Below are positions 4,973-24,737 of a stretch of DNA of 24,737 nucleotides, one piece after another. A model generated the notes under the pieces. That model saw only the letters and a program-made list of their open reading frames with translations, searched no databases and was not told where the DNA came from. The position numbers were made by a program, and so were the translations under genes. The stretch lies in IMG/VR virus record IMGVR_UViG_3300026280_000003. One strand, 5' to 3'. This DNA is from a virus. Numbering within the stretch: the first letter of the stretch is position 1; every line of letters starts with the position of its first letter.

Positions 4973-5062
4973 GAAAAACACGTGAATTTATCATAGGGAG
5001 AAAAACACGTGGTATGATAGAATTGAAAGAAAATAGTTGTGGTAAACTCCAGGTGTGGTAAA
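4973..5062. repeat. Direct repeats in an AT-rich intergenic region: GAAAAACACGTG x2 (27-bp period) and TGTGGTAAA x2 (16-bp period)
   Basis: Copies at about 4973-4984 and 5000-5011; and at about 5038-5046 and 5054-5062. TGTGGTAAACT recurs on the opposite strand at about 5477-5488, just upstream of the resolvase gene. Confidence 0.5.
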
Positions 5063-5549: not shown

Positions 5550-5614
5550 GCAATGTACTTGATCGCAAGTCGTTACGGAGTCTACATTATGTCGCAATGT
5601 AGGGGGGGTATAAT
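5550..5614 (+). promoter_or_regulatory. Control region for the plus-strand operon: three AATGTA half-sites, including the inverted repeat CTACATT-N7-AATGTAG, directly upstream of a TATAAT -10 box
   Basis: GCAATGTAC at about 5550-5558; CTACATT at about 5582-5588; AATGTAG at about 5596-5602; TATAAT at about 5609-5614. No good -35 hexamer at 17-bp spacing; the inverted repeat occupies that position. Confidence 0.5.
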
Positions 5615-5683
5615 TGGGGTGAAAAGTGTTTGAGAAGCCCCGCCGGGTGAGGTGGCGGGAAAACGGGAAAGGAGGGGTGAAGG

Positions 5684-5902
5684 ATGAAAGATGTGCGAAA
5701 AATCATTGAAGATTGGCTCGAGAACAGGATGTGGCATCTCATACCACAAGAGACACGGCAAAAAGCGGAGCAGTTGTTGCAGCAAGGGGTTGCGGGAATC
5801 GATTTAAAGGGTCTCATCATCGTGCTTCATCATTTTGTTACTGAACCGGTCGAGACTCGTTACGGAACCGACATCGTAGCGCAACGAAAGGCAGTAAAAT
5901 AA
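5684..5902 (+). CDS. Hypothetical protein (72 aa), first gene of the only plus-strand operon
   Basis: ATG preceded by GGAAAGGAGGGGTGAAGG; no recognisable motif. Confidence 0.5.
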   Translation: MKDVRKIIEDWLENRMWHLIPQETRQKAEQLLQQGVAGIDLKGLIIVLHHFVTEPVETRYGTDIVAQRKAVK

Positions 5903-5956
5903 AAGTGGAAAACAACAAATGCCGTCGGGGAACGACGGCAAAAGGGAGGGGGAAGT

Positions 5957-6310
5957 ATGGGAAAGATAACTTTAGAGTCATTGGAGGCACCCTATGTCTT
6001 AAAAGAAAGCACGTATTTCTGGCGGACGGAGCGGCATGCGGCCGCGCGCCGCAGCCGCGAGAAATACTACGTGAGCCTGGTAGAAGACTGGTTGAGGCGC
6101 CTTTGTGAACAACACGGGTTGAACCTCAGAATTGAAAAGACAGACACGAGCGTCGCGGCATACAACAAAGATGAGCAGGTATTCAAATTCACAATCAGGT
6201 TAAGTTGCCGCCACGTTTACAAGAGACAAGATGTGAAAAAGTTACTGCGGCTGGTTTCTGAAACGCAAAGGAAAGGAGGTGACGGACGTCCTCCCGCGGC
6301 AGGGGAGTAA
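5957..6310 (+). CDS. Hypothetical protein (117 aa), basic
   Basis: ATG preceded by AGGGAGGGGGAAGT; no recognisable motif. Confidence 0.5.
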   Translation: MGKITLESLEAPYVLKESTYFWRTERHAAARRSREKYYVSLVEDWLRRLCEQHGLNLRIEKTDTSVAAYNKDEQVFKFTIRLSCRHVYKRQDVKKLLRLVSETQRKGGDGRPPAAGE

Positions 6311-6339
6311 AAACGGAGAAGAGGAGGTGGAAGCCCGCG

Positions 6340-6693
6340 GTGGGAGGCGCGGGCAAGGCGATGGGAAAGGCAGAAGTACTTCAAAAGCTGCGCAAATTCT
6401 TGAGAAAGAATCTCTGGGAGATCCCCGAGGTCCAAGAAGCGGTCGCGCAGTTGGAGAGATTGGCCGCGCAGCACGATTGGTACCCCTCAGACGTGCTCAA
6501 CTTTGAAATCATGTATGAGAACAAGCCGCGAGCGCTCAGGATAATTTTCAGTGCTCCTGTTGAAACGCTCGGCGAAGACTCCGTAAAAGAGATGCACCGC
6601 TGGCAAGAAGTAATAGCGACCGCAGTCCAGTCCTTTGTTTTGAAAACCCTCGAAGCCGAAGGTCTCCCATGGGAAATTGTGAACGAGCTCTGA
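6340..6693 (+). CDS. Hypothetical protein (117 aa by the track GTG start; alternative ATG at about 6361)
   Basis: GAGGAGGTGG about 9 nt upstream of the GTG at 6340; ends at a TGA immediately before the bidirectional terminator. Confidence 0.5.
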   Translation: MGGAGKAMGKAEVLQKLRKFLRKNLWEIPEVQEAVAQLERLAAQHDWYPSDVLNFEIMYENKPRALRIIFSAPVETLGEDSVKEMHRWQEVIATAVQSFVLKTLEAEGLPWEIVNEL

Positions 6694-6710
6694 AAAAGCA
6701 CCGCACTGCG

Positions 6711-6741
6711 AAAAGGTCCGCTCACGAGGAGCGGACCTTTT
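6711..6741. terminator. Bidirectional intrinsic terminator between convergent genes
   Basis: AAAA-GGTCCGCTC-ACGAG-GAGCGGACC-TTTT: 9-bp perfect GC-rich stem flanked by an A-tract and a T-tract; located between the plus-strand stop at 6693 and the minus-strand stop at 6744. Confidence 0.8.
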
Positions 6742-6743
6742 GC

Positions 6744-7244
6744 TCAAATCTCGTCGACGTCCAGCACGTCGAAGCGGGTGTATCCGCCAAGCACAAGCGC
6801 TGATTCGATCGCTTCATCGATCATGAAATAACGTTTCGGCAAGAGTACGAACGGTGTGAACATGCGGTATTCGTATTGATACGTGCTTTCGTCGCGCACG
6901 ATGGCAAAAACGTGATTTCGTTCGGGGCGTTTGTGTACCCCTGTGATGTAATATGCCTTCCTCCCGAGCGCCTGCGCGAGCCTGCACACAGCAAGAGCGA
7001 AATCGTCGCAATCTCCTCCGCCGCGCCTTACGAACGCTGGCAAGTCGTATTGGATGTCGAGAAGTCCCCACAGCGGGTCGGGAATGTAGCGAAAGCGCGT
7101 CATGAAGTTTGCGACATCGTCGAGCGTGCGCATCTTGTATGCCTCGGCAATTTTCCTCGCGTACTCCTTTGCGCCTTTTTTGCCTTTTCGAAAGAGCATT
7201 TTCAAGCGGACGTAGAGGCCGAGCATGCCATGGCCACCCCTCAT
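6744..7244 (-). CDS. Transglutaminase-like cysteine peptidase fold protein, last gene of the lysis cassette
   Basis: GGGDCDDFALAVCRLAQALG matches the transglutaminase-core active-site pattern G-x-C-x-x-F-A; a downstream His (NHVFAIV) and Asp candidates are present. ATGA overlap with the upstream small membrane ORF. Confidence 0.5.
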   Translation of the reverse strand: MRGGHGMLGLYVRLKMLFRKGKKGAKEYARKIAEAYKMRTLDDVANFMTRFRYIPDPLWGLLDIQYDLPAFVRRGGGDCDDFALAVCRLAQALGRKAYYITGVHKRPERNHVFAIVRDESTYQYEYRMFTPFVLLPKRYFMIDEAIESALVLGGYTRFDVLDVDEI

Positions 7245-7411
7245 TTTGTGAACTTGCTCGCCACATTGCTGCCGCAGTAGATTCCGAACAACGCGATAAC
7301 GACGTGGGAAAAGTTATCGTTGTCGATCTTGTCGAAAACTTTGAGGAGAAAAAAAGCCGCAATGAGAAGCAGCGCCAAGATGAATTTGCGGCTTTTCCAC
7401 TTCTCTTCCAT
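7241..7411 (-). CDS. Small two-TM membrane protein (56 aa), holin-like
   Basis: Hand-translated: MEEKWKSRKFILALLLIAAFFLLKVFDKIDNDNFSHVVIALFGIYCGSNVASKFTK. RBS GAGGTGA; two hydrophobic segments; stop overlaps the next start. Not in the ORF track (under 60 aa). Confidence 0.45.
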   Translation of the reverse strand: MEEKWKSRKFILALLLIAAFFLLKVFDKIDNDNFSHVVIALFGIYCGSNVASKFTK

Positions 7412-7415
7412 ACGG

Positions 7416-7778
7416 TCACCTCACGAAGAGCAAAACGAGCGTTCCTATCGTGATCGCTCCGACGACAATCCATGCAACTCTTTTTTGTTTGTCTAACTCT
7501 GTTTTCAGCCTCTGTACTTCTTCAGCAAGCGCTTTCTTTTCCGCTTTCTCGAGCTCCAGCATATCGCGCAAAACTTGCACTTGTTGTTCGAGATTCGCAA
7601 TTTGCGCGCGATAGTTCTGATTCAGCTCCTCCAGCTGTTTGATGTAGTTTGCGAGCAAAATCACCGTTTCTTCGTCGAGATAATATCTGCCGTCCTCGGC
7701 ACGCTGAATGATTTTGTATTCGGCGAAGAGAGAAACGACGGCAAAGAGGATCAACAATATCAGAAGCCTCTTCATCAC
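7416..7778 (-). CDS. Membrane protein with N-terminal signal/TM, central coiled coil and C-terminal TM; spanin-like (unimolecular-spanin architecture, no lipobox Cys)
   Basis: MMKRLLILLILFAVVSLFA... then heptad-rich QLEELNQNYRAQIANLEQQVQVLRDMLELEKAEKKALAEEVQRLKTELDKQ, then WIVVGAITIGTLVLLFV; RBS GGAGGGATCGTG. Confidence 0.45.
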   Translation of the reverse strand: MMKRLLILLILFAVVSLFAEYKIIQRAEDGRYYLDEETVILLANYIKQLEELNQNYRAQIANLEQQVQVLRDMLELEKAEKKALAEEVQRLKTELDKQKRVAWIVVGAITIGTLVLLFVR

Positions 7779-7891
7779 GATCCCTCCAGTCGGAAACCTT
7801 CTTCTTTTATCTCGAACTTTGTTAGCTTACCATCCTTTAAAAGCGCACAACAAAGTCTGCCTTGCTCGTTTACATATGCCCATACACGCAT

Positions 7892-7993
7892 TCACATCAA
7901 GCTCCTTACGATGATTTCGTAGATCTGCACGACGCTATCGAATGCGGAAGCTACTACCGCCACCAGAAGCAACAACACCACGAGGCATCTCAT
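7892..7993 (-). CDS. Small hydrophobic peptide (33 aa)
   Basis: Hand-translated: MRCLVVLLLLVAVVASAFDSVVQIYEIIVRSLM. Strong RBS AAAGGAGG 8 nt upstream; not in the ORF track (under 60 aa). Confidence 0.3.
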   Translation of the reverse strand: MRCLVVLLLLVAVVASAFDSVVQIYEIIVRSLM

Positions 7994-8008
7994 GATTTCG
8001 CCTCCTTT

Positions 8009-8320
8009 TCACTTTTTAAGTTTCTTTAGTACCTCGTTCAAGTACTCAATCGCCTCATCCACGTTGTTGAAGTGCTTTTTGTCGTAGATGATCTTTTCCT
8101 CTGCTTTGAGCTTTTCAAGCTCTTTTTCAAGCTTATCAAGCTCCGCTGTCTTACGTTTTTTAATCTCCTCTAACTCTGTTTTCAGCTGTTGCCTTTGCTT
8201 TTTCTTCGCTAACTCCGCTCCGCCGACGAACGCGACTAACGCGAGGATGAGCCACCAAAACCGCTTGACGAATTCTGTTGACGCTTTGAAAAACTCTTTA
8301 ATCACCTTCACTATTTTCAT
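8009..8320 (-). CDS. Type-II membrane-anchored coiled-coil protein (about 103 aa), i-spanin-like
   Basis: Likely ATG start at about 8320 (RBS GGAAGGTGAG); the track ORF extends to 8380. N-terminal TM FWWLILALVAFVGGA followed by a Lys/Glu-rich coiled coil. Confidence 0.45.
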   Translation of the reverse strand: MKIVKVIKEFFKASTEFVKRFWWLILALVAFVGGAELAKKKQRQQLKTELEEIKKRKTAELDKLEKELEKLKAEEKIIYDKKHFNNVDEAIEYLNEVLKKLKK

Positions 8321-8696
8321 TCGTCTCACCTTCCTTCGTGAGTAGTAAATCAACCAACCTGCGCGCTTGTTCGTTTGCAAGGAAGCTCACAAGACCCGTG
8401 GCGATCGCATCAACAAAATGTTCGTTCTTTCGCACACTGTGCCGCAAAGACTCATGACCCGTTATGTACCCAATTGCGTGCAAGACTTCGTGAAACAATG
8501 TTTGTGCAAACTGAGTTCGTGAGAGAAGCGGAGACACGTAGATGCGAGCATCCTCGAGGTCATAAGCGACGTGAAGTCCTTGTGTGGTTTCAATTTCCAA
8601 GCCTTCCTCTTCGCACGCCTCGGAAAGTTTTTGTTCGTCGCATATAATTCTGTATGGAACGCCTAAAATCCTTACACTTATCTCAAATCCTTTCAT
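8298..8696 (-). CDS. HExxH zinc-metallopeptidase-like protein (132 aa), translationally coupled to the endolysin
   Basis: Motif TLFHEVLHAIGYITGHE (HExxH plus a downstream His/Glu); the start ATG overlaps the endolysin stop (ATGA). Confidence 0.5.
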   Translation of the reverse strand: MKGFEISVRILGVPYRIICDEQKLSEACEEEGLEIETTQGLHVAYDLEDARIYVSPLLSRTQFAQTLFHEVLHAIGYITGHESLRHSVRKNEHFVDAIATGLVSFLANEQARRLVDLLLTKEGETNENSEGD

Positions 8697-9187
8697 CGCT
8701 TACCCTCCCCTTTGAGTCGCCAAAACTCGCTCCAAAAGAGGAAATCAATCAAGTGCGCTTTTGTCTCTTGCGGTACAGCTTCATCGATTTTGCAATTCGA
8801 CGGATCTCGCATCGCCAGCCAATTCAAAACGTTCCCAATACCCCAATTGTATGCCATGACCGCGAGAATGTCGGCACGTTCGTAGTCGAAAAACATTCTG
8901 TAAAGACGTCTAAGATAGCGAATCCCAACAAAGATGTTGCGGTCTGGTCTAAACATGTCATCGTAGTCGAAGTTTGTTGAATAAATCTGGTTTATATCCT
9001 CGAGCGCCGCGCGCGAGACCTGCATAAGTCCTCTCGCATATCCCGAATCCGCGTTAGGATCCCAGGCGCTTTCGGTTTCAATCAGCGCAAAAACGTGGTG
9101 CAACTTCGGAAAGTCCGCGACCTTGTACGCCGTCACAAAGTCAACATAGTGTGCCTCAACTAAGTGTTCAAGCATTTTTCTTGTCAT
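8693..9187 (-). CDS. Endolysin, lytic transglycosylase (SLT domain)
   Basis: Family-1 lytic transglycosylase motifs: ETES (catalytic Glu), GLMQV, and AYNWG; no signal peptide or TM segment. Confidence 0.8.
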   Translation of the reverse strand: MTRKMLEHLVEAHYVDFVTAYKVADFPKLHHVFALIETESAWDPNADSGYARGLMQVSRAALEDINQIYSTNFDYDDMFRPDRNIFVGIRYLRRLYRMFFDYERADILAVMAYNWGIGNVLNWLAMRDPSNCKIDEAVPQETKAHLIDFLFWSEFWRLKGEGKR

Positions 9188-9191
9188 GTCC

Positions 9192-9422
9192 TCACCTCCT
9201 CAGAAGGAAGGAAATTAACAAACTTATAACCGCCGAGGAAGTGAGAACCGCGAGAAAGATTTCACCGACCATGGCTTTCACGACGCCACGAACACGATTT
9301 TCCAAGTAGCCGTTTAGACGATCGGACAAGGACTTGAGTTGCTGTTTTATCTCCTCGATGTCCTTTTCCTGTGCCTTTAACAGTGTTTCAACCGCCGCAA
9401 TTCTTTCGCACAAGTTGTCCAT
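9192..9422 (-). CDS. Small tail-anchored membrane protein (76 aa), holin-like candidate
   Basis: N-terminal coiled coil and C-terminal TM (IFLAVLTSSAVISLLISFLL) ending in RR; RBS GAGGTGG; immediately upstream of the endolysin. Confidence 0.4.
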   Translation of the reverse strand: MDNLCERIAAVETLLKAQEKDIEEIKQQLKSLSDRLNGYLENRVRGVVKAMVGEIFLAVLTSSAVISLLISFLLRR

Positions 9423-9478: not shown

Positions 9479-10273
9479 TTATTTTACTTCGACAAGTCTA
9501 ACTTCTTTTTTCTTCTCTTCTCTGTAAAGCTTCACGATCACATGGCATCTGGGAACAAGCGGAAACAGCTTTTGATCCGCATACTTTGCTCGCGCCCACG
9601 CCGACACGCAGACATGAAGAATGTTTCTTTCAATCACTTTCTTGTTCAGAGGATCATACTCCTCGACCGCCGTCATCGCGGTCATTGGCGCGTGCGTGTG
9701 CCCCGTGATGTAAATATCTGCGCGCTGGATTCGTTCGAAAAAGTATCTGTGTTGACGTACGGAGCGTTCTGGAAAACGTCCTCCCGCAACGCCGTGATGG
9801 CATACAATCGAATACTGTGTACGTCCTCTTGAACCGCGCGCAGAGCCGTTCAAAGCTACGTCGACGATCAAAAAATCATCACTGAACGGTACGCCTAACT
9901 CTGTGCAAATCAAGCGAATCGGATCCACACCCGCGACGCGCCACGTGCGACGCTCGTGATTTCCTCCCACAACACCCAAGATGCGTTCTTTCCAGCGCCG
10001 AAGAATGTTAGTCACTTCTTCTATCGCTCGGTGCGGAGGCCTGTCCTGCGAATACACGTCACCGATACTCGAGATTATCGCGTTGTCGATCAAGTCGCCT
10101 AACAGAATTAGCTTGTATTCAGGGTGCATATCCACGAACGCGACAGCTTCGTGAAAGTAACTTCCCGTCTCGCCGATGTGAAGATCCCCGAGAGGCAAGA
10201 TCTCGACCTCGCTTGTGTCGAGGTCATAGCGAACAACACGGCTGATGTCATGCTCCCCCCGCGCCTTGCTCAT
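9479..10273 (-). CDS. Calcineurin-like metallophosphoesterase
   Basis: All signature motifs in order: GDLHIG (GDxH), GDLIDN (GDxxD), GGNHE (GNHE), CHHG, GHTH (GHxH). ATGA overlap with the upstream 56-aa ORF. Confidence 0.8.
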   Translation of the reverse strand: MSKARGEHDISRVVRYDLDTSEVEILPLGDLHIGETGSYFHEAVAFVDMHPEYKLILLGDLIDNAIISSIGDVYSQDRPPHRAIEEVTNILRRWKERILGVVGGNHERRTWRVAGVDPIRLICTELGVPFSDDFLIVDVALNGSARGSRGRTQYSIVCHHGVAGGRFPERSVRQHRYFFERIQRADIYITGHTHAPMTAMTAVEEYDPLNKKVIERNILHVCVSAWARAKYADQKLFPLVPRCHVIVKLYREEKKKEVRLVEVK

Positions 10274-18774: not shown

Positions 18775-19191
18775 TCAACTCCTTAGGTGTTCTAAAATCT
18801 GTTGAATTGCAAACGGAACATCTGTGCTTTCATCGATTTCGAGAAACGGGCGCGCCGGAATTCGACTCGTGCCATATTGGTGGTAAGGTCCGTAATGCAC
18901 ACCCGTGTAGACTTCTGCGGTATTTTCACTAACTTCGTGAGTTATACTCGCTCTCAAGCGACCGTGAAACACCAAAATCGGGTACGCGGTCCCTTTGGCT
19001 CTTATCTTGCGTTTCTTAGTCTTCTCGCTCAAGTCTGGCCACGCCGTCACACGCCCCGTGTTGCGTTCGAAAGTCTTTTGCGACTCGCTTTGAAGATGAA
19101 TCGCTATCTTTTTTAGCGGGTTCGAAAGATCTTTGAGCTTTTCAATTTTGTTTTTCAGCGTCTCACCTTCGAAGATAGCGCGAATTACCAT
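18775..19191 (-). CDS. Virion morphogenesis protein (Mu gpG / HK97 gp10-like)
   Basis: C-terminal motif YGPYHQYGTSRIPARPFL characteristic of this family. Confidence 0.55.
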   Translation of the reverse strand: MVIRAIFEGETLKNKIEKLKDLSNPLKKIAIHLQSESQKTFERNTGRVTAWPDLSEKTKKRKIRAKGTAYPILVFHGRLRASITHEVSENTAEVYTGVHYGPYHQYGTSRIPARPFLEIDESTDVPFAIQQILEHLRS

Positions 19192-19538
19192 CTTTCCAGC
19201 TCCTCGTCTGTTATTGCGCGCGGGTCTGAGCGCACAACAGGACGGCTGTAGTTCTGAATCAACGCTGTGTTTTTCATCATCCTGTAAAACTGATCGGCGC
19301 GCTCTGCGTAGTATTTCGCCTGTTCAAGATAACCGAATCGCTCGTGAAGACGCTGAAGCGCGAAGTACTTCGCAAAAAGCTCCACAATTGGGCCTGTGTT
19401 GTCACCAACCATAGCGTTAATTTCGTCTAACAGATCTCGAATCGCTTTATCGTCGGGCGCTTGCGTTTCTGGATCGGTCAGAAGCGCGTTTTTCAGAGTT
19501 TGCGGGATGAAACTCTCTAAATCTTGCCATGTTATCAT
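19185..19538 (-). CDS. Putative head completion / connector protein (117 aa)
   Basis: First gene after the major capsid gene; RBS GAGGTGA. Confidence 0.35.
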   Translation of the reverse strand: MITWQDLESFIPQTLKNALLTDPETQAPDDKAIRDLLDEINAMVGDNTGPIVELFAKYFALQRLHERFGYLEQAKYYAERADQFYRMMKNTALIQNYSRPVVRSDPRAITDEELERW

Positions 19539-19552
19539 CGCATCACCTCAGA

Positions 19553-19578
19553 AAGGGAGGGGGGGCCCCCCTCCCGTC
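19553..19578 (-). terminator. GC-rich palindromic hairpin immediately 3' of the major capsid gene (putative attenuator)
   Basis: GGGAGGGGGGG/CCCCCCTCCC near-perfect palindrome followed on the minus strand by TTTCT, then the RBS of the next gene. Confidence 0.5.
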
Positions 19579-19582
19579 GCTA

Positions 19583-20581
19583 TTACGGTTGCGCTTCGAA
19601 CGTGACCGCGTAAATTTTGAGGGCGTTCACGTTGAGGACATACGGCAACGGTCTCGAAACCGCATAAACGTCGACTGAGCTTCCATCGACGGATGGCGCT
19701 TCAAATGCGAAAATGTCTCCAACAACTGGTTTCATATCGGCATTCAAGTTCGCGTTCGCAACCGCACCGTACGCGATGCCAAGCCCGTTCGGGTCCAAAA
19801 GCACAACTTTTCCTGTGCCGAATGGAGACTCCGAGCCGATTGTGACGTCGTAAATCAGGACTGGAGGCAAATCTGGAAGCTCAAACAACGGCGTCACGAA
19901 AGGTTCGGTTTTCAACGATATCGTGCCAACAGCGTAGTTTGCCTTTGTTAGCGCTTTGTCGATGTATTTGTTGTCGAGCAGAACGCTCGCGACGTCTTTG
20001 CTCACGAGGATGTACGCTGGGGCGAAGCCGTGTTTCTTTTGCTCAGTTACGAGATCTTTGAGCCACAAAAGAAGGTTAGAATCTGGGTCCAGCGTCACTG
20101 CGCTCGGCGCGGTGTACGTCAACGTGTACGTGTACGTGCCGTCGTTGTAGTTTATCTTCCCTGTTCCCGCGATCTGAGCGCACATGAGCTCGATGCGGTT
20201 TAGGACCATGCGTTTCAAGCGCGCGACGGCTTCGGCGTAGACGAACATAACATTGTTTGTCACAGATCCTGTGTCTGCGATGATCAAACTCGGGTCAGAG
20301 ATCTGCGAAAGGAGCAATTCTTCGGTGATCGGAATTTTCACAAAGATCTGCGGTGGGTTAATGTCTGTTTCCGTGTACGCGAAGGTTTCGTTTTGGTTGA
20401 CCGCTTGCGTGTAAAGACCGCGAAGAGGCGCGGCAGTTACCGTCGCGTCCATGTTGCGCAGCGTCACCTTTGGAACAGGTGACAAAGCTCTGTTTACTTG
20501 TTCGAACGTCTTTGTTAGGAACGAGGGCGCAGGTTTTGCCACTTTGATAAAAGCCGTCAGTAGTTTCCAATCCTGTGGCAT
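19583..20581 (-). CDS. Major capsid protein (332 aa)
   Basis: Follows the protease/scaffold gene in a Mu-like head module; size typical of an HK97-fold capsid protein; a strong hairpin lies downstream. Confidence 0.6.
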   Translation of the reverse strand: MPQDWKLLTAFIKVAKPAPSFLTKTFEQVNRALSPVPKVTLRNMDATVTAAPLRGLYTQAVNQNETFAYTETDINPPQIFVKIPITEELLLSQISDPSLIIADTGSVTNNVMFVYAEAVARLKRMVLNRIELMCAQIAGTGKINYNDGTYTYTLTYTAPSAVTLDPDSNLLLWLKDLVTEQKKHGFAPAYILVSKDVASVLLDNKYIDKALTKANYAVGTISLKTEPFVTPLFELPDLPPVLIYDVTIGSESPFGTGKVVLLDPNGLGIAYGAVANANLNADMKPVVGDIFAFEAPSVDGSSVDVYAVSRPLPYVLNVNALKIYAVTFEAQP

Positions 20582-20603
20582 AACTTCTCAACCTCCTTTT
20601 AGG

Positions 20604-21758
20604 TTACTTCCAGCGCATTTGTTTAGCCACAATATCAACAATGTCAGCGCTATCTGGGTTCACGAATTGACGTACCAAATTGCGTTTCGTGTGCTCTGCG
20701 AGTTTCAAGATACTTTCTTTGTCCATCTTACCTTCTTTGAATAGTCTAACATATTCTTCGGCAAGTGCTGGCGGTACACCTTTTTTGACTAACTCTTGTT
20801 TGAACGCGTTGAGCTCGCGCTCTCTTTCTTTCTCTTTGAATTCGTTGATCGTGTTCTCGTACTCTGTTAGCTTGTCCATAAGATGTTTGTTCATTCTTTT
20901 CAGGCGCTCGATCTCCTCGCACAACGCGACTTCGTCCGAGCCACGGAATTCTTCTCCGAACAGTTCGTAAATCTCCTTGATCTTGCGAATAACTTCGAGC
21001 TTTTCCGCGTCTGTCAGATCGACCTCAACACCACGCGCGCCATGCAGGTAAGCAAGTGCCGCGACGGCGGCGCGAAAGTAAAGGTGAAATTCTCCGTTTT
21101 CGAGTTTGCAGACTGGAAACTTGTAGGCTGCTTTCACTTCAGGAACTCCGCTGGGGCCTTCTTCAAAATCGCGCGTGTTCGCGTACAAATGACACTTCGC
21201 ATACGCTTTCCATCCTTTTTCCTCGATAATTTTGTTTCCATCCCGCGCGTCGTCCCAGTCCCATTGCTTCGTGCGCTCGGGAACAACAAGCATCCCGTTC
21301 CAACGTTTCCTCTCGCTGAGGAGTCGTCGCATACCCGAAAACATGGCGATGAAAACATCTTTGAAAGTTAGCTTCGTCTCAGGAAGCGCGGGGCGATTCG
21401 TGAGCGCGACGCCGAGCAACACGACACCGACTTCCTCTCCCGTCTCGCGGTCCACATAAGCGAAGTCGATTTCGGGGCTCACGTACTCGTACTTGTGTTC
21501 CTCTAACATTTTTTGTCCTTCCTCATTTAGTTCGAGCACTGCCCACAAGCCGTCTTCTTCGATGTAGAGCTCCTTCACGTCGCCGTACTTTTCACTTGAT
21601 TCGTGATCAATGTTCACGAACGGCTTGTAGTGTGGATAGCCTTTGTTGAAGTTCTTCACGATCTCTTCGGCGAGCTCTTTCGTAAACTCGATGGGTTCCT
21701 TTTGACCGTACACGTAGATTTTGCCGAAAGGAAGAATCTTCGCTTTCGCTAACATCAT
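20604..21758 (-). CDS. Prohead protease / scaffold protein (Mu gpI-like), with a C-terminal coiled coil
   Basis: N-terminal region VNIDHES...DGLWAVLELNEEG...YEYVSPEIDF resembles the Mu I pattern (VDYEH...DGLY...YRY.SP.F); C-terminal half is Glu/Lys-rich coiled coil. Confidence 0.6.
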   Translation of the reverse strand: MMLAKAKILPFGKIYVYGQKEPIEFTKELAEEIVKNFNKGYPHYKPFVNIDHESSEKYGDVKELYIEEDGLWAVLELNEEGQKMLEEHKYEYVSPEIDFAYVDRETGEEVGVVLLGVALTNRPALPETKLTFKDVFIAMFSGMRRLLSERKRWNGMLVVPERTKQWDWDDARDGNKIIEEKGWKAYAKCHLYANTRDFEEGPSGVPEVKAAYKFPVCKLENGEFHLYFRAAVAALAYLHGARGVEVDLTDAEKLEVIRKIKEIYELFGEEFRGSDEVALCEEIERLKRMNKHLMDKLTEYENTINEFKEKERERELNAFKQELVKKGVPPALAEEYVRLFKEGKMDKESILKLAEHTKRNLVRQFVNPDSADIVDIVAKQMRWK

Positions 21759-21759
21759 T

Positions 21760-22623
21760 TCACCTCACCGTCCTCAAAATTTCCCTCACTATTTCGACAT
21801 CCTCAGGACGCTTTTGGATCTCGGGAAGCTCAGCCATTTTGTGTTCGTCGAGAATTTCTTGCGTCTTCACGTGGTGCAATTCTGGGATTAGATAAGAGCG
21901 ACAATTCACGTGCAAAGGAGGCGTGTTCAGAGCAAGAATATCAACATTGTGAGCTGGGATGAACATTCCATGACGCTCTTGGCAAATTTCTGTTGTTCTG
22001 TCGTCCAACACGGCGGTGAATCGGTAACCTTCGATGTACTGAACAGTGTTTGCGAGATTTCCGACGTTGAAAGCGCGTGTTGTTTCGGTGCGCGCAATAG
22101 CCTTCGCGCGCTTTTTCTCGAACGCTTTGAACTGCTCTTGGATGTATTTTATCGCTTCTTCTTCGCTCATTCCGCGCAACAATGTTTGACGAACCGCGTC
22201 TGTGATCTCTGTCGCTAACGCTCGCAATTCGTATTGCGACACGCTAACCGTGTAGGACTCTAAGAATTTTAGCGCGGGTTTGTGAGCGTGAAAGACATAG
22301 TTAACCGCTTCCTCAGCGTTCTCGAAGACCTTTCCTATGACCTTCGCTAAGATTTGCCATTCACTTGTCAAAGATTGTTTGAGATACAGATAAAGCTCCT
22401 CCTCTGAGAACGTCGCTAATCTGCGTGGGCGCTTGCGAACGCTCGTGAGAACTCCTAAGCTGAAGGCGTAGAGTAGCGGGCGAAAGAGATTTTCGGCTCC
22501 TTGTTCCACATCTATCTTACCAGTGTTAAGGTAGTTGTCAAGACTTTTTTTGAACACTCTTTGCACGTTGAACAATATTTTTCGCTCCGAAGAAAGCATG
22601 AGTTTACCAACGACGCTCGACAC
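21760..22623 (-). CDS. Head morphogenesis protein (Mu F-like / SPP1 gp7 family)
   Basis: Conserved ARTETTRAFN and DDRTTEICQ...HVNCRSY motifs. Confidence 0.75.
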   Translation of the reverse strand: MSSVVGKLMLSSERKILFNVQRVFKKSLDNYLNTGKIDVEQGAENLFRPLLYAFSLGVLTSVRKRPRRLATFSEEELYLYLKQSLTSEWQILAKVIGKVFENAEEAVNYVFHAHKPALKFLESYTVSVSQYELRALATEITDAVRQTLLRGMSEEEAIKYIQEQFKAFEKKRAKAIARTETTRAFNVGNLANTVQYIEGYRFTAVLDDRTTEICQERHGMFIPAHNVDILALNTPPLHVNCRSYLIPELHHVKTQEILDEHKMAELPEIQKRPEDVEIVREILRTVR

Positions 22624-23738: not shown

Positions 23739-24737
23739 ACGATCACCCTTTCAACGTGCGGTTTCACGTTTTGGCGATTCTGGTAGACCGCGTATCTGAG
23801 CGCGTCCATAGCGTGGTCCATAAATTTGACTGGTTCATCGAGTGGGTTGCCGTTTCGGTCTTCTTTCCATTTGTAGTTGCGAATCTCTTTTAGTGTATTC
23901 ACACAATGTTCGCTTATGTAGATTGTCCTGCGTTTCAGAAAATCTATGCCCGCTTTGACATCTTTCAAAGCGGGTTGGATGTTGAAGCCCGCGCGTCTGA
24001 TTTCTTCGATTCTTGCGGGTTCCGAAGAGTCAGCGAAAATTGGCGCATTGCGCTCCCGCACGAATTGCTTCAGTAAGTCAATCAACTCTGCGTTTGTTAG
24101 CTTCGTCTTATAGAGTTCGTCGAGCACCCACACGTTTTGGTCTTTGATGCCAACCTTCAGGACCACAGTGGGGTTGTTGAAACCGAAGTCGATTCCGTAT
24201 CTGATTTCGTCAAATTCGCTCGGCGCGTCTTTCACAACACGATAGTTCGTGAAGATCAGGTTTTCGGGTGTTGCAAATCTACCTTCCGCGTAGATCTCGT
24301 AGAATGTTTTGTCTTCGTTTTTTAGTGCTTCTAACTGTCTTATGTACTCCTCATCAAGGAAGGGATTGTCCCGATACGTCGTATGCAAGATCATAGCGCT
24401 TGGGTTCTGACGCTCAAAAAAGAGCTTGTACGTCCAGTTATGCACAGAAACGGGGTTGAATGCCAAAATTATTTGATTCGGAATCAGCCAACCTTTACGG
24501 CTTCTCACTTGCGGGCGTCGTAGCCTGAGCTTTAAGATTCTATAATCTTGTTCGTCGAACTCAGTCGCTTCTTCCATCCACACAATGTTAAATTCAGCGC
24601 TTTTGATCTTCTCAGGATCGTCCATTCCTCTGAAGTAGATACGAGAGCCGTCGAGCAGGCTCAGAATTTGTTCCGCTCTTTGTTCGAAGAAGTAAACATT
24701 GTTCGTGCTCAAAATTTCCTTGACGAGCTCCAATGCG
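23735..24737 (-). CDS. terL: Terminase large subunit, C-terminal segment (Walker B and nuclease domain)
   Basis: ORF track 23735..24733; IVWMEEATEFD Walker B-like motif and a C-terminal nuclease-like region (GIDFGF...); sits directly upstream of the portal-position gene. Confidence 0.85.
   Translation of the reverse strand, partial: ALELVKEILSTNNVYFFEQRAEQILSLLDGSRIYFRGMDDPEKIKSAEFNIVWMEEATEFDEQDYRILKLRLRRPQVRSRKGWLIPNQIILAFNPVSVHNWTYKLFFERQNPSAMILHTTYRDNPFLDEEYIRQLEALKNEDKTFYEIYAEGRFATPENLIFTNYRVVKDAPSEFDEIRYGIDFGFNNPTVVLKVGIKDQNVWVLDELYKTKLTNAELIDLLKQFVRERNAPIFADSSEPARIEEIRRAGFNIQPALKDVKAGIDFLKRRTIYISEHCVNTLKEIRNYKWKEDRNGNPLDEPVKFMDHAMDALRYAVYQNRQNVKPHVERVIV
24639..24737. repeat. Second copy of the 99-bp terminal repeat (identical to 1-99)
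   Basis: Exact identity with bases 1-99. Confidence 0.9.

Follow-up and report, generated by a model that had tools for sequence, protein, structure and literature searches.

How a phage can leave a diderm host when its lysis genes encode no lipoprotein of the o-spanin kind is the question raised by positions 6744-9422 of IMG/VR virus record IMGVR_UViG_3300026280_000003, a 24,737-nt stretch of DNA that we refer to as the window. The initial annotation had placed in this region an SLT endolysin surrounded by five small envelope proteins without a lipobox, and had proposed a non-canonical way of disrupting the outer layer, perhaps in a host with an atypical envelope. We find that the region, which lies on the minus strand and forms the 3' end of the long late operon of a phage with a Thermotogota host, is very probably a lysis module with a holin and endolysin core. 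The proposal of non-canonical disruption gains a concrete candidate in a conserved gene pair, g103 and g119, which overlap in most related loci. The function of the pair is read from analogy with two-component spanins; it may act on the outer layer, and we place this at slightly below an even chance.

In minus-strand order, the operon consists of the genes for a metallophosphatase, g76, SLT, g132, g103, g33, g38, g119, g56 and g166, followed by a hairpin. The open reading frames (ORFs) of the initial annotation are all found on this strand where it had placed them. The minus-strand ORFs carry Shine-Dalgarno sites, and their junctions are tight or overlapping.

The gene g103 (8009-8320, minus strand) encodes an i-spanin-like protein. 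Its predicted N-terminal transmembrane (TM) segment, RFWWLILALVAF, is followed by a coiled coil rich in charged residues and, at the C-terminus, by the conserved tip F.N.DEAIEYLN.VL. A TTG-extended ORF of 123 amino acids (aa) is less likely than the 103-aa form. Script-based analysis places the hydrophobic segment at about residues 17-39 and the heptads at 44-103, and both features are kept in five aligned homologues and in the profile matches at related loci. In the family alignment, the conserved positions of the tip are F84, A90, Y93, L94, V97 and L98. In the order of its parts this product agrees with the type-II anchored coiled-coil protein first described, the type-II orientation itself being putative.

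The second gene, g119 (7416-7775, minus strand; with the alternative end at 7778 the product has 120 aa), encodes a signal peptide, a conserved head (YKIIQR.EDGRYYLDEETV..LANYIKQLEELN.NY), a heptad coiled coil and a C-terminal TM segment at residues 99-119. Across the family, the N-terminus shows two to three K/R residues, an h-region of 13-17 residues, and A, S, C or G at position -1 before a conserved E/N-Y-K. This stretch is best read as a cleavable signal for signal peptidase I (SPI). The initial annotation had assigned TM segments to both ends with a central coiled coil; both ends are indeed hydrophobic and the heptads are central, but with the N-terminal segment taken as a signal peptide, g119 is probably better described as a type I membrane protein. 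Its conserved positions, from Y20 to Y55, fall in the N-terminal head and the first heptads of the mature protein. If g103 is oriented with its N-terminus inside and g119 is anchored by its C-terminus, the conserved tip of the former and the conserved head of the latter are the very ends that would meet in the periplasm. We propose that g119 is the outer partner of g103.

The g119 family is narrow, with about 13-15 clusters among 1.84 billion representative proteins; the remaining matches are generic coiled coils. Homology between g119 and the Omp-alpha protein of the host envelope was considered and rejected, since the profile matches outside the family are generic coiled-coil repeat proteins. 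Among them, the SLH-coiled-coil-TM protein P0060 (E 2e-5) matches the g119 profile through its coiled coil and TM segment alone. Compared with the related locus L038, whose proteins are 76-85% identical to those of the window, the dN/dS ratios are 0.14 for g103, 0.11 for g119 and 0.06 for both g76 and g56, with synonymous sites near saturation. These values imply that all four are real genes under strong purifying selection.

To follow the genes across relatives, we built profile hidden Markov models (HMMs) from our own alignments and searched them in 18 related loci. The comparison defines a five-gene core of g103, g119, g56, an XhlA-like gene and the SLT endolysin gene, and homologues of g76, g103, g119 and g56 occur at 40-85% identity in many independent contigs. 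The order g103-like, g119, g56 is kept wherever this region is present, and the XhlA-like gene followed by SLT adjoins it wherever the sequence extends far enough. The block of three lies upstream of the XhlA-like and SLT genes in Thermosipho-type prophages and downstream of them in the lineage of the window. A g103 homologue stands directly upstream of g119 in 17 of the 18 loci, that is, in every locus that has the region. An initial BLASTP search had found no g103 homologue outside the clade of the window, and the gene might have been taken as lineage-specific; the HMMs recovered it, BLAST being insensitive here.

The two genes are arranged in a manner reminiscent of spanins. Outside the window clade, all 14 loci have the start of g119 placed in the +1 frame within the last part of g103. 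From this start to the stop codon of g103 the distance is 71-92 nt in most of these loci, and 107 nt in L052. The starts are TTG or ATG, preceded by AAGGA, GAGGG or GGGAG, and the shared stretch codes in one frame for the conserved C-terminal tip of the g103 product and in the other for the g119 signal peptide. "Overlapped" is one of the three gene classes of two-component spanins (PMC6139136). Within the window clade (the window and L035-L040), the two genes are "separated" by a slot for a protease gene, which holds an intact HtrA-like protease in L036 and L038-L040, is degraded in the window, and is cleanly empty in L035 and L037.

The absence of a lipobox noted in the initial annotation is borne out on a larger scale. 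We searched the pattern [ILMFTV][^REKD][GAS]C from every start in the three coding-strand frames of 15 cassettes (the window and 14 related ones), and it is absent from all of them. A looser lipoprotein scan of both strands of the whole 24.7-kb genome returned two antisense artefacts only. An o-spanin hidden in another frame is thereby ruled out. A few g119 family members carry a cysteine at or near the predicted cleavage site (L013 at 3150, L021 at 7098, P0041 and P0046), in the non-canonical, lipobox-like contexts TIFC|E, TMLC|A, TSFC|E and GVCA|D; most members have no cysteine. Conceivably, g119 is occasionally lipid-modified in some lineages.

The suggestion of a host with an atypical outer envelope proved well founded. 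By sequence, the named proteins nearest to SLT belong to Thermosipho globiformans and Marinitoga sp. 1137, and a genome scan led to metagenome-assembled genomes of Pseudothermotoga (53% identity), Thermotogaceae and Petrotoga. The small-protein families also occur at the end of a prophage in a T. globiformans isolate, adjoining host genes. Among cultured phages, only Oceanotoga phage vB_OteS-UFV02 gave an above-chance match in a Thermotogota context. Neither a nucleotide search of the region nor tblastn searches with g119 and the major capsid protein found a match among 50,697 phage records. Since the relatives all reside in genomes or phages of Thermotogota, the host is a member of this phylum. 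A monoderm host, which would make the absence of spanins trivial, is ruled out by the same relatives, including the Thermosipho prophage.

Thermotogota have no lipopolysaccharide (LPS), and their sheath, the toga, consists of arrays of beta-barrel trimers with small lipid patches (PMC10160955, PMC8871954). Thermotogae possess bamA, and nearly all the other outer-membrane genes surveyed, including Lpt and Tol-Pal, are missing; in the same survey lolB is restricted to Proteobacteria (PMC8871954). Given that Thermotogota lack LPS and most outer-membrane genes, lolB among them, a lipoprotein o-spanin is not to be expected. The toga is tethered to the wall across a periplasm of about 70 nm by 50-nm Omp-alpha rods, whose SLH domains attach it to peptidoglycan (PMC10160955, PMC3387000), and all Omp-alpha homologues have hydrophobic C-termini (PMC3387000). 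Upon induction of the Thermosipho virus TAV1, toga fragments are seen and released.

The core of the module comprises three further genes. The SLT lytic transglycosylase (8693-9187, minus strand, 164 aa) matches Pfam SLT PF01464 with an E-value of 3.8e-18 (65.6 bits against a cutoff of 21.3), and E39-S40 and other residues are invariant in 16 homologues. The hydropathy script detected no signal, signal-anchor-release (SAR) or other hydrophobic segment in it. As judged from its sequence, SLT is a cytoplasmic endolysin, and without a signal or SAR segment it needs a holin.

The best candidate for this holin is g56 (7241-7411, minus strand), which encodes a 56-aa protein with two predicted TM segments. 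The first, at residues 7-30, is strong and the second, at about 36-52, is weaker, in agreement with the two-TM topology first assigned to it; the N-terminus is rich in K/R and the C-terminus carries a K. K4, S7-R8-K9, G43, Y45, N49 and K53 are invariant in an alignment of ten members, and the family as a whole keeps a size of 56-66 aa and basic termini. Wherever the region is present, g56 follows g119 without any other gene of these families intervening. The two are separated by 1-50 nt in most loci, and by about 190 nt in L052 and L058. It matches phrog_20455, a family without assigned function, at E 2.4e-4. The comparison with curated holin families that the initial annotation had suggested gave no Pfam or NCBIfam match for g56, which is thus a candidate class II holin by form and position only.

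The gene g76 (9192-9422, minus strand) immediately precedes SLT in nearly all loci; its XhlA-like product begins with a coiled coil, contains the conserved motif NGYLE and ends in a TM segment. By the hydropathy and heptad script it is heptad-rich at residues 1-49 and hydrophobic at 50-75, as expected of the tail-anchored protein first described. It matches phrog_1193 ("hemolysin", XhlA family) at E 7e-6. With Pfam XhlA (PF10779), seven of 13 members of the family show a weak similarity that stays below the curated cutoff (best E 3.6e-4). No other Pfam family is matched by as many of them; the window protein itself has no match at E<=0.1. In prophage PBSX of Bacillus subtilis, the membrane protein XhlA works jointly with the holin XhlB, the two being required besides the lysin (PMC5589764). 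By this analogy, g76 is probably the partner of the holin.

Three enzymes in the operon had been left out of the initial annotation. One, g132, lies within the interval that it covered (8298-8696, minus strand) and encodes a small acidic protein resembling HExxH...E zinc metallopeptidases. Its start codon shares the sequence ATGA with the stop codon of SLT, a sign of translational coupling, and H69, E70, H73 and E92 are invariant in seven homologues. It matches phrog_1233 at E 2e-9 and phrog_87 ("metallo-protease") at E 3e-6; DUF6782, M78 and SprT match four or five of the seven family members weakly, and all Pfam scores are below cutoff. Searches of PDB sequences with g132 alone and with the family profile gave nothing significant. 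A single-sequence AlphaFold2 (AF2) model is poor (pLDDT 66), and its Foldseek matches are all non-significant, IrrE/PprI appearing at E>0.3 only.

The last gene of the operon, g166 (6744-7244, minus strand; the true start is probably 7226), encodes a transglutaminase-like cysteine peptidase similar to LapG/BTLCP. It aligns with LapG (4fgo_A; phmmer E 5e-5) through the common motif F.Y..DP...GGGDC(D/E)DFA, and Foldseek relates its AF2 model (pLDDT 74) to 3isr (2.5e-4), LapG (2.8e-4) and PeiP (1.5e-2). The catalytic Cys and His are invariant in four homologues, the third catalytic residue is not clearly conserved, and the hydropathy script found no hydrophobic N-terminal segment or signal peptide. 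The gene is conserved in L035-L040. In L005, L023 and L045 it is a papain-fold cysteine amidase similar to Peptidase_C92 that closes the cassette instead. Judging from these sequences, a second cysteine peptidase beside SLT is a recurring and replaceable feature of Thermotogota cassettes.

The third enzyme is a calcineurin-like metallophosphoesterase of 264 aa (9479-10273, minus strand; Pfam Metallophos E 1.3e-6, phrog_7339 E 6e-51). It lies directly upstream of the lysis genes and is syntenic with them in almost every related locus. It even lies inside the cassette in L005 (936-1712, between SLT and the holin-like genes) and L042 (626-1408, between the XhlA-like gene and SLT). A search of PDB sequences gave no match. 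We suppose that it may be an enzyme of the lysis module, for example one directed at SLH-binding wall polymers with phosphodiester links, and not a "DNA repair exonuclease" as PHROGs has it.

The 33-aa hydrophobic peptide counted among the small envelope proteins has a different origin. The corresponding ORF, g33 (7892-7993, minus strand), retains the signal peptide and first residues of a protease, with 76% identity to residues 1-25 of the intact 301-aa secreted Trypsin_2/HtrA-like protease of L038 (E 3e-10), and this identity rules it out as a lysis peptide. The adjoining g38 (7775-7891, minus strand) holds an internal fragment of the same gene, matching residues 115-133 (E 8e-8), together with its C-terminal codons. 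The deletion junctions of the protease gene are visible by blastn, and with two fragments of 25 and 19 matching residues the catalytic domain is not intact in the window. In relatives the intact protease (L036 and L038, 4099-5004) matches Trypsin_2 at E 4.7e-19 as well as the DegP/HtrA families. By these alignments g33 and g38 are deletion remnants and not a gene family, and the count of five small envelope proteins was an overstatement, one of them being a pseudogene fragment. Among genomes with 70-85% protein identity, the slot is occupied, degraded or empty (the site of absence in L035 is 4999-5001), a polymorphism that, at the sequence level, indicates recent gain and loss of an exported protease in the lysis cassette.

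From the observed gene content, conservation, architecture, sequence features and host phylum, we infer the functional steps of a lysis pathway, the membrane of each helix and the contact between g103 and g119. g56, probably together with the XhlA-like g76, would permeabilise the cytoplasmic membrane in the manner of PBSX XhlA/XhlB. The signal-less SLT would then escape and cleave peptidoglycan, and in doing so would remove the layer that anchors the Omp-alpha rods of the toga. In the periplasm, g103 and g119 would act in the manner of a two-component spanin, g103 binding the g119 head through its C-terminal tip. In place of the lipid anchor of an o-spanin, g119 would use its C-terminal helix, possibly within the lipid patches of the toga as the C-termini of Omp-alpha may do; these hydrophobic C-termini provide, on the host side, a precedent for anchoring by a helix at the toga. 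The lineage-specific peptidases, i.e. g132, g166 and, in relatives, the HtrA-like protease that is degraded here, would cut peptide stems or envelope proteins.

Taken to its full extent, this pathway would make g103/g119 the first two-component spanin without a lipoprotein. In such a system g119 would be exported through its SPI signal, held by its helix in the lipid patches of the toga in imitation of Omp-alpha, and docked head-to-tip with g103 after SLT has removed the wall, and the toga would thereby open. The spanin principle would then have evolved independently for a host that is without LPS and without the usual machinery for outer-membrane lipoproteins. We consider this full reading unlikely.

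Several observations weigh against an action of the pair on the outer layer. α-Helical TM segments normally remain in the cytoplasmic membrane, and g119 may do so as well. The toga is mostly a protein lattice, and membrane fusion might not open it. The ectodomains of g103 and g119 together amount to about 145 residues, or about 20 nm if fully helical, as against the periplasm of about 70 nm in T. maritima (PMC10160955), implying that they could form a bridge only after the wall and tethers have collapsed, or in hosts with a narrower gap. The TM segment of g103 has equally basic flanks, which leaves its charge-based orientation ambiguous, and the similarity of g103 to Rz-like PHROGs is weak and driven by the coiled coil. 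The fixed position of g119 just upstream of g56 fits a role as holin regulator equally well. Furthermore, the cassettes of L003, L005, L006, L023 and L045 have no g103, g119 or g56 and carry unrelated small TM proteins instead; the pair is not universal among Thermotogota phages.

The strongest rival explanation, which we regard as possible though somewhat unlikely, is that g103 and g119 constitute an antiholin of the cytoplasmic membrane, a timing device or a multi-component holin with g56, and that the toga is not attacked by them at all. The adjacency of g119 and g56, the movement of the three genes as a block relative to the XhlA-like and SLT genes, the default of helical anchors to the cytoplasmic membrane and coiled coils far shorter than a 70-nm periplasm are all in keeping with such a role, and XhlA-type systems show that holins can require a coiled-coil membrane partner. 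However, the cassette already contains such a partner in its XhlA-like protein. A +1 overlapped pair composed of a type-II-like coiled coil and a signal-peptide protein is a hallmark of spanins and not of known antiholins, and export of the conserved g119 head to the periplasm would be needless for a regulator at the cytoplasmic face.

Alternatively, there may be no dedicated outer-layer factor: SLT with g132 and g166 would destroy the wall that anchors Omp-alpha, the untethered sheath would tear, and the small proteins would serve in superinfection exclusion or be morons. The tethering of the toga to peptidoglycan by SLH domains, the release of toga fragments upon TAV1 induction and the recurrence of a second papain-fold cysteine peptidase near SLT (LapG-like in the window, Peptidase_C92 in L005, L023 and L045) would suit this explanation, as would the fact that no spanin can be identified in about 13% of the phages that infect Gram-negative hosts (PMC6139136). 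We nevertheless consider it quite unlikely, because morons would not be expected to keep the order g103/g119/g56, to evolve under purifying selection and to be confined to lysis cassettes, and because the peptidases are lineage-specific, Thermosipho-type cassettes, which end at SLT, having none of them. That the "elaborate" set is an artefact of chance frames or annotation noise is most improbable. It is true of the 33- and 38-aa ORFs, which are protease remnants and not genes, and it is refuted for g76, g103, g119 and g56 by their Shine-Dalgarno sites, their homologues at 40-85% identity and their dN/dS of 0.06-0.14. We keep the action of g103/g119 on the outer layer as our tentative reading.

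The cassettes without the pair form a second type, in which the XhlA-like gene and SLT are retained together with two N-terminal-TM proteins of 78-107 aa and 93-100 aa. L045, one of them, is the Oceanotoga phage vB_OteS-UFV02 (OR420712, record positions 18904-21820), whose lysis genes are all annotated as "hypothetical protein". In L015, the genes for SLT, a 56-aa two-TM protein and a 100-aa protein are followed by one for a 126-aa protein (1403-1783), which has a signal peptide, an aromatic-rich, beta-strand-like composition and the C-terminus ...SIKY. It could be a small phage-encoded beta-barrel of the outer layer.

At its downstream end the operon faces a plus-strand gene (6340-6693). Between this gene and the convergent g166 lies a G+C-rich hairpin, GGTCCGCTC...GAGCGGACC (6711-6741), read from the sequence, which is likely to mark the end of the late/lysis operon. 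A consensus terminator scan did not list it because its T-run is short. The 24,737-nt window carries an exact 99-bp terminal direct repeat (1-99 and 24639-24737), and the large terminase ORF continues across the repeat junction. The repeat and the terminase read-through indicate a circular assembly and a complete genome of about 24.6 kb. It codes for terminase subunits, a portal, a capsid protein, a tape measure protein and replication genes, and is the complete genome of a small siphovirus-like phage. Near-identical contigs are found in one JGI metagenome and one ENA metagenome.

The related genomes differ beyond the lysis genes. In L035-L037 a serine recombinase and an S24-type repressor directly follow the LapG-like gene (6075-8168); the window has three small plus-strand genes of 72, 117 and 117 aa in their place (5600-6700) and no integrase anywhere. 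This phage may thus descend from a temperate lineage as a lytic or non-integrating form. L038-L040 carry, near the replication module, a 213-aa gene (8289-8930 in L038) matching PF09652 (Cas_VVA1548, putative CRISPR-associated), for which no counterpart was noted in the window.

Atypical diderms such as Thermotogota, Deinococcota and diderm Firmicutes have no LPS and no conventional sorting of outer-membrane lipoproteins, and their outer layers are rich in protein. Phage escape from them is essentially unstudied. In the searchable literature, papers on Thermotogota viruses merely name a "lysis module", and searches for spanins or holins in viruses of Thermotoga or Marinitoga turned up no treatment of the mechanism or of the crossing of the toga. 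The cassette described here provides a defined and testable set, namely a five-gene core, a spanin-like pair with a different mode of anchoring, and accessory peptidases. If the pair acts on the toga, the spanin solution is not bound to lipoproteins, and the genes would open a genetic route to the questions of how the toga is built, how it behaves mechanically and how helical anchors get there. Should the target of the pair prove to be the holin, the two proteins would define a new kind of holin partner. With either outcome, these families can now be annotated in Thermotogota proviruses.

Among known systems, the closest likeness is to the two-component spanins, such as lambda Rz/Rz1 and the overlapped class of P2 LysB/LysC. 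Like these, g103 and g119 are adjacent genes of a lysis cassette; as in these, the first protein combines an N-terminal TM segment with a coiled coil, and the second gene lies in the +1 frame within the 3' end of the first and has an exported product. The combined ectodomain of about 145 aa also resembles Rz plus Rz1 in size. Unlike Rz1, g119 has neither a lipobox nor a Cys, and its mature form is not short and proline-rich but has about 100 aa, with a helical coiled coil and a TM end. The hosts differ as well, Thermotogota being without LPS and most of the conventional outer-membrane machinery. On the spanin side, the suggested comparison with curated families yielded no significant sequence similarity of g103 or g119 to any spanin, with weak matches of g103 to Rz-like PHROGs (E 5e-4 to 1e-3). 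Judged by the published description of spanins (PMC6139136), the i-spanin form and the gene architecture are present, and a lipoprotein o-spanin is absent. The two proteins are thus not members of the two-component spanin family but may work like one.

The u-spanin T1 gp11 likewise combines an N-terminal export signal with a C-terminal TM segment within a lysis cassette. However, gp11 needs a lipoprotein signal and has a periplasmic domain predicted to be of beta-strand type, whereas g119 has an SPI signal and a coiled coil and always occurs with g103; it is not a u-spanin. In phages without spanins, extra cassette genes for non-standard envelopes are exemplified by the phiKT gp28 "disruptin", mycobacteriophage LysB and corynephage LysZ. 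These are a cationic peptide, a mycolyl esterase and a polytopic membrane protein, respectively, with no likeness to g103 or g119 in sequence or architecture.

On the host side, Omp-alpha and g119 have the order of signal peptide, coiled-coil rod and hydrophobic C-terminus in common. The rod of Omp-alpha measures about 50 nm with its 316 residues, and the protein has an SLH domain; g119 has a non-SLH head of 25 residues and about 60 heptad residues. No sequence relationship between them was detected, HMM matches outside the g119 family being generic coiled coils. For the accessory enzymes, g166 has its catalytic-Cys motif and, in the predicted model, its fold in common with LapG, a periplasmic enzyme that, unlike g166, has a signal peptide of its own and that cleaves an adhesin in a Ca-dependent manner. 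PeiP, one of the pseudomurein endoisopeptidases PeiP/PeiW, shows the same fold in a prophage wall-lytic enzyme.

The remainder of the core recalls PBSX XhlA/XhlB/XlyA, in which a coiled-coil protein with a C-terminal TM segment stands beside the lysin and a small multi-TM holin, here the candidate g56. The systems differ in the lysin, which is here an SLT transglycosylase in place of an amidase, and in the host, which here is diderm. Moreover, no similarity between g56 and XhlB is detectable, and the Pfam XhlA match is weak and below cutoff. Viruses of Thermotogota and Firmicutes are known to take part in virus-mediated gene sharing, and the likeness of the XhlA-like, holin and lysin genes to Firmicutes systems is consistent with such exchange.

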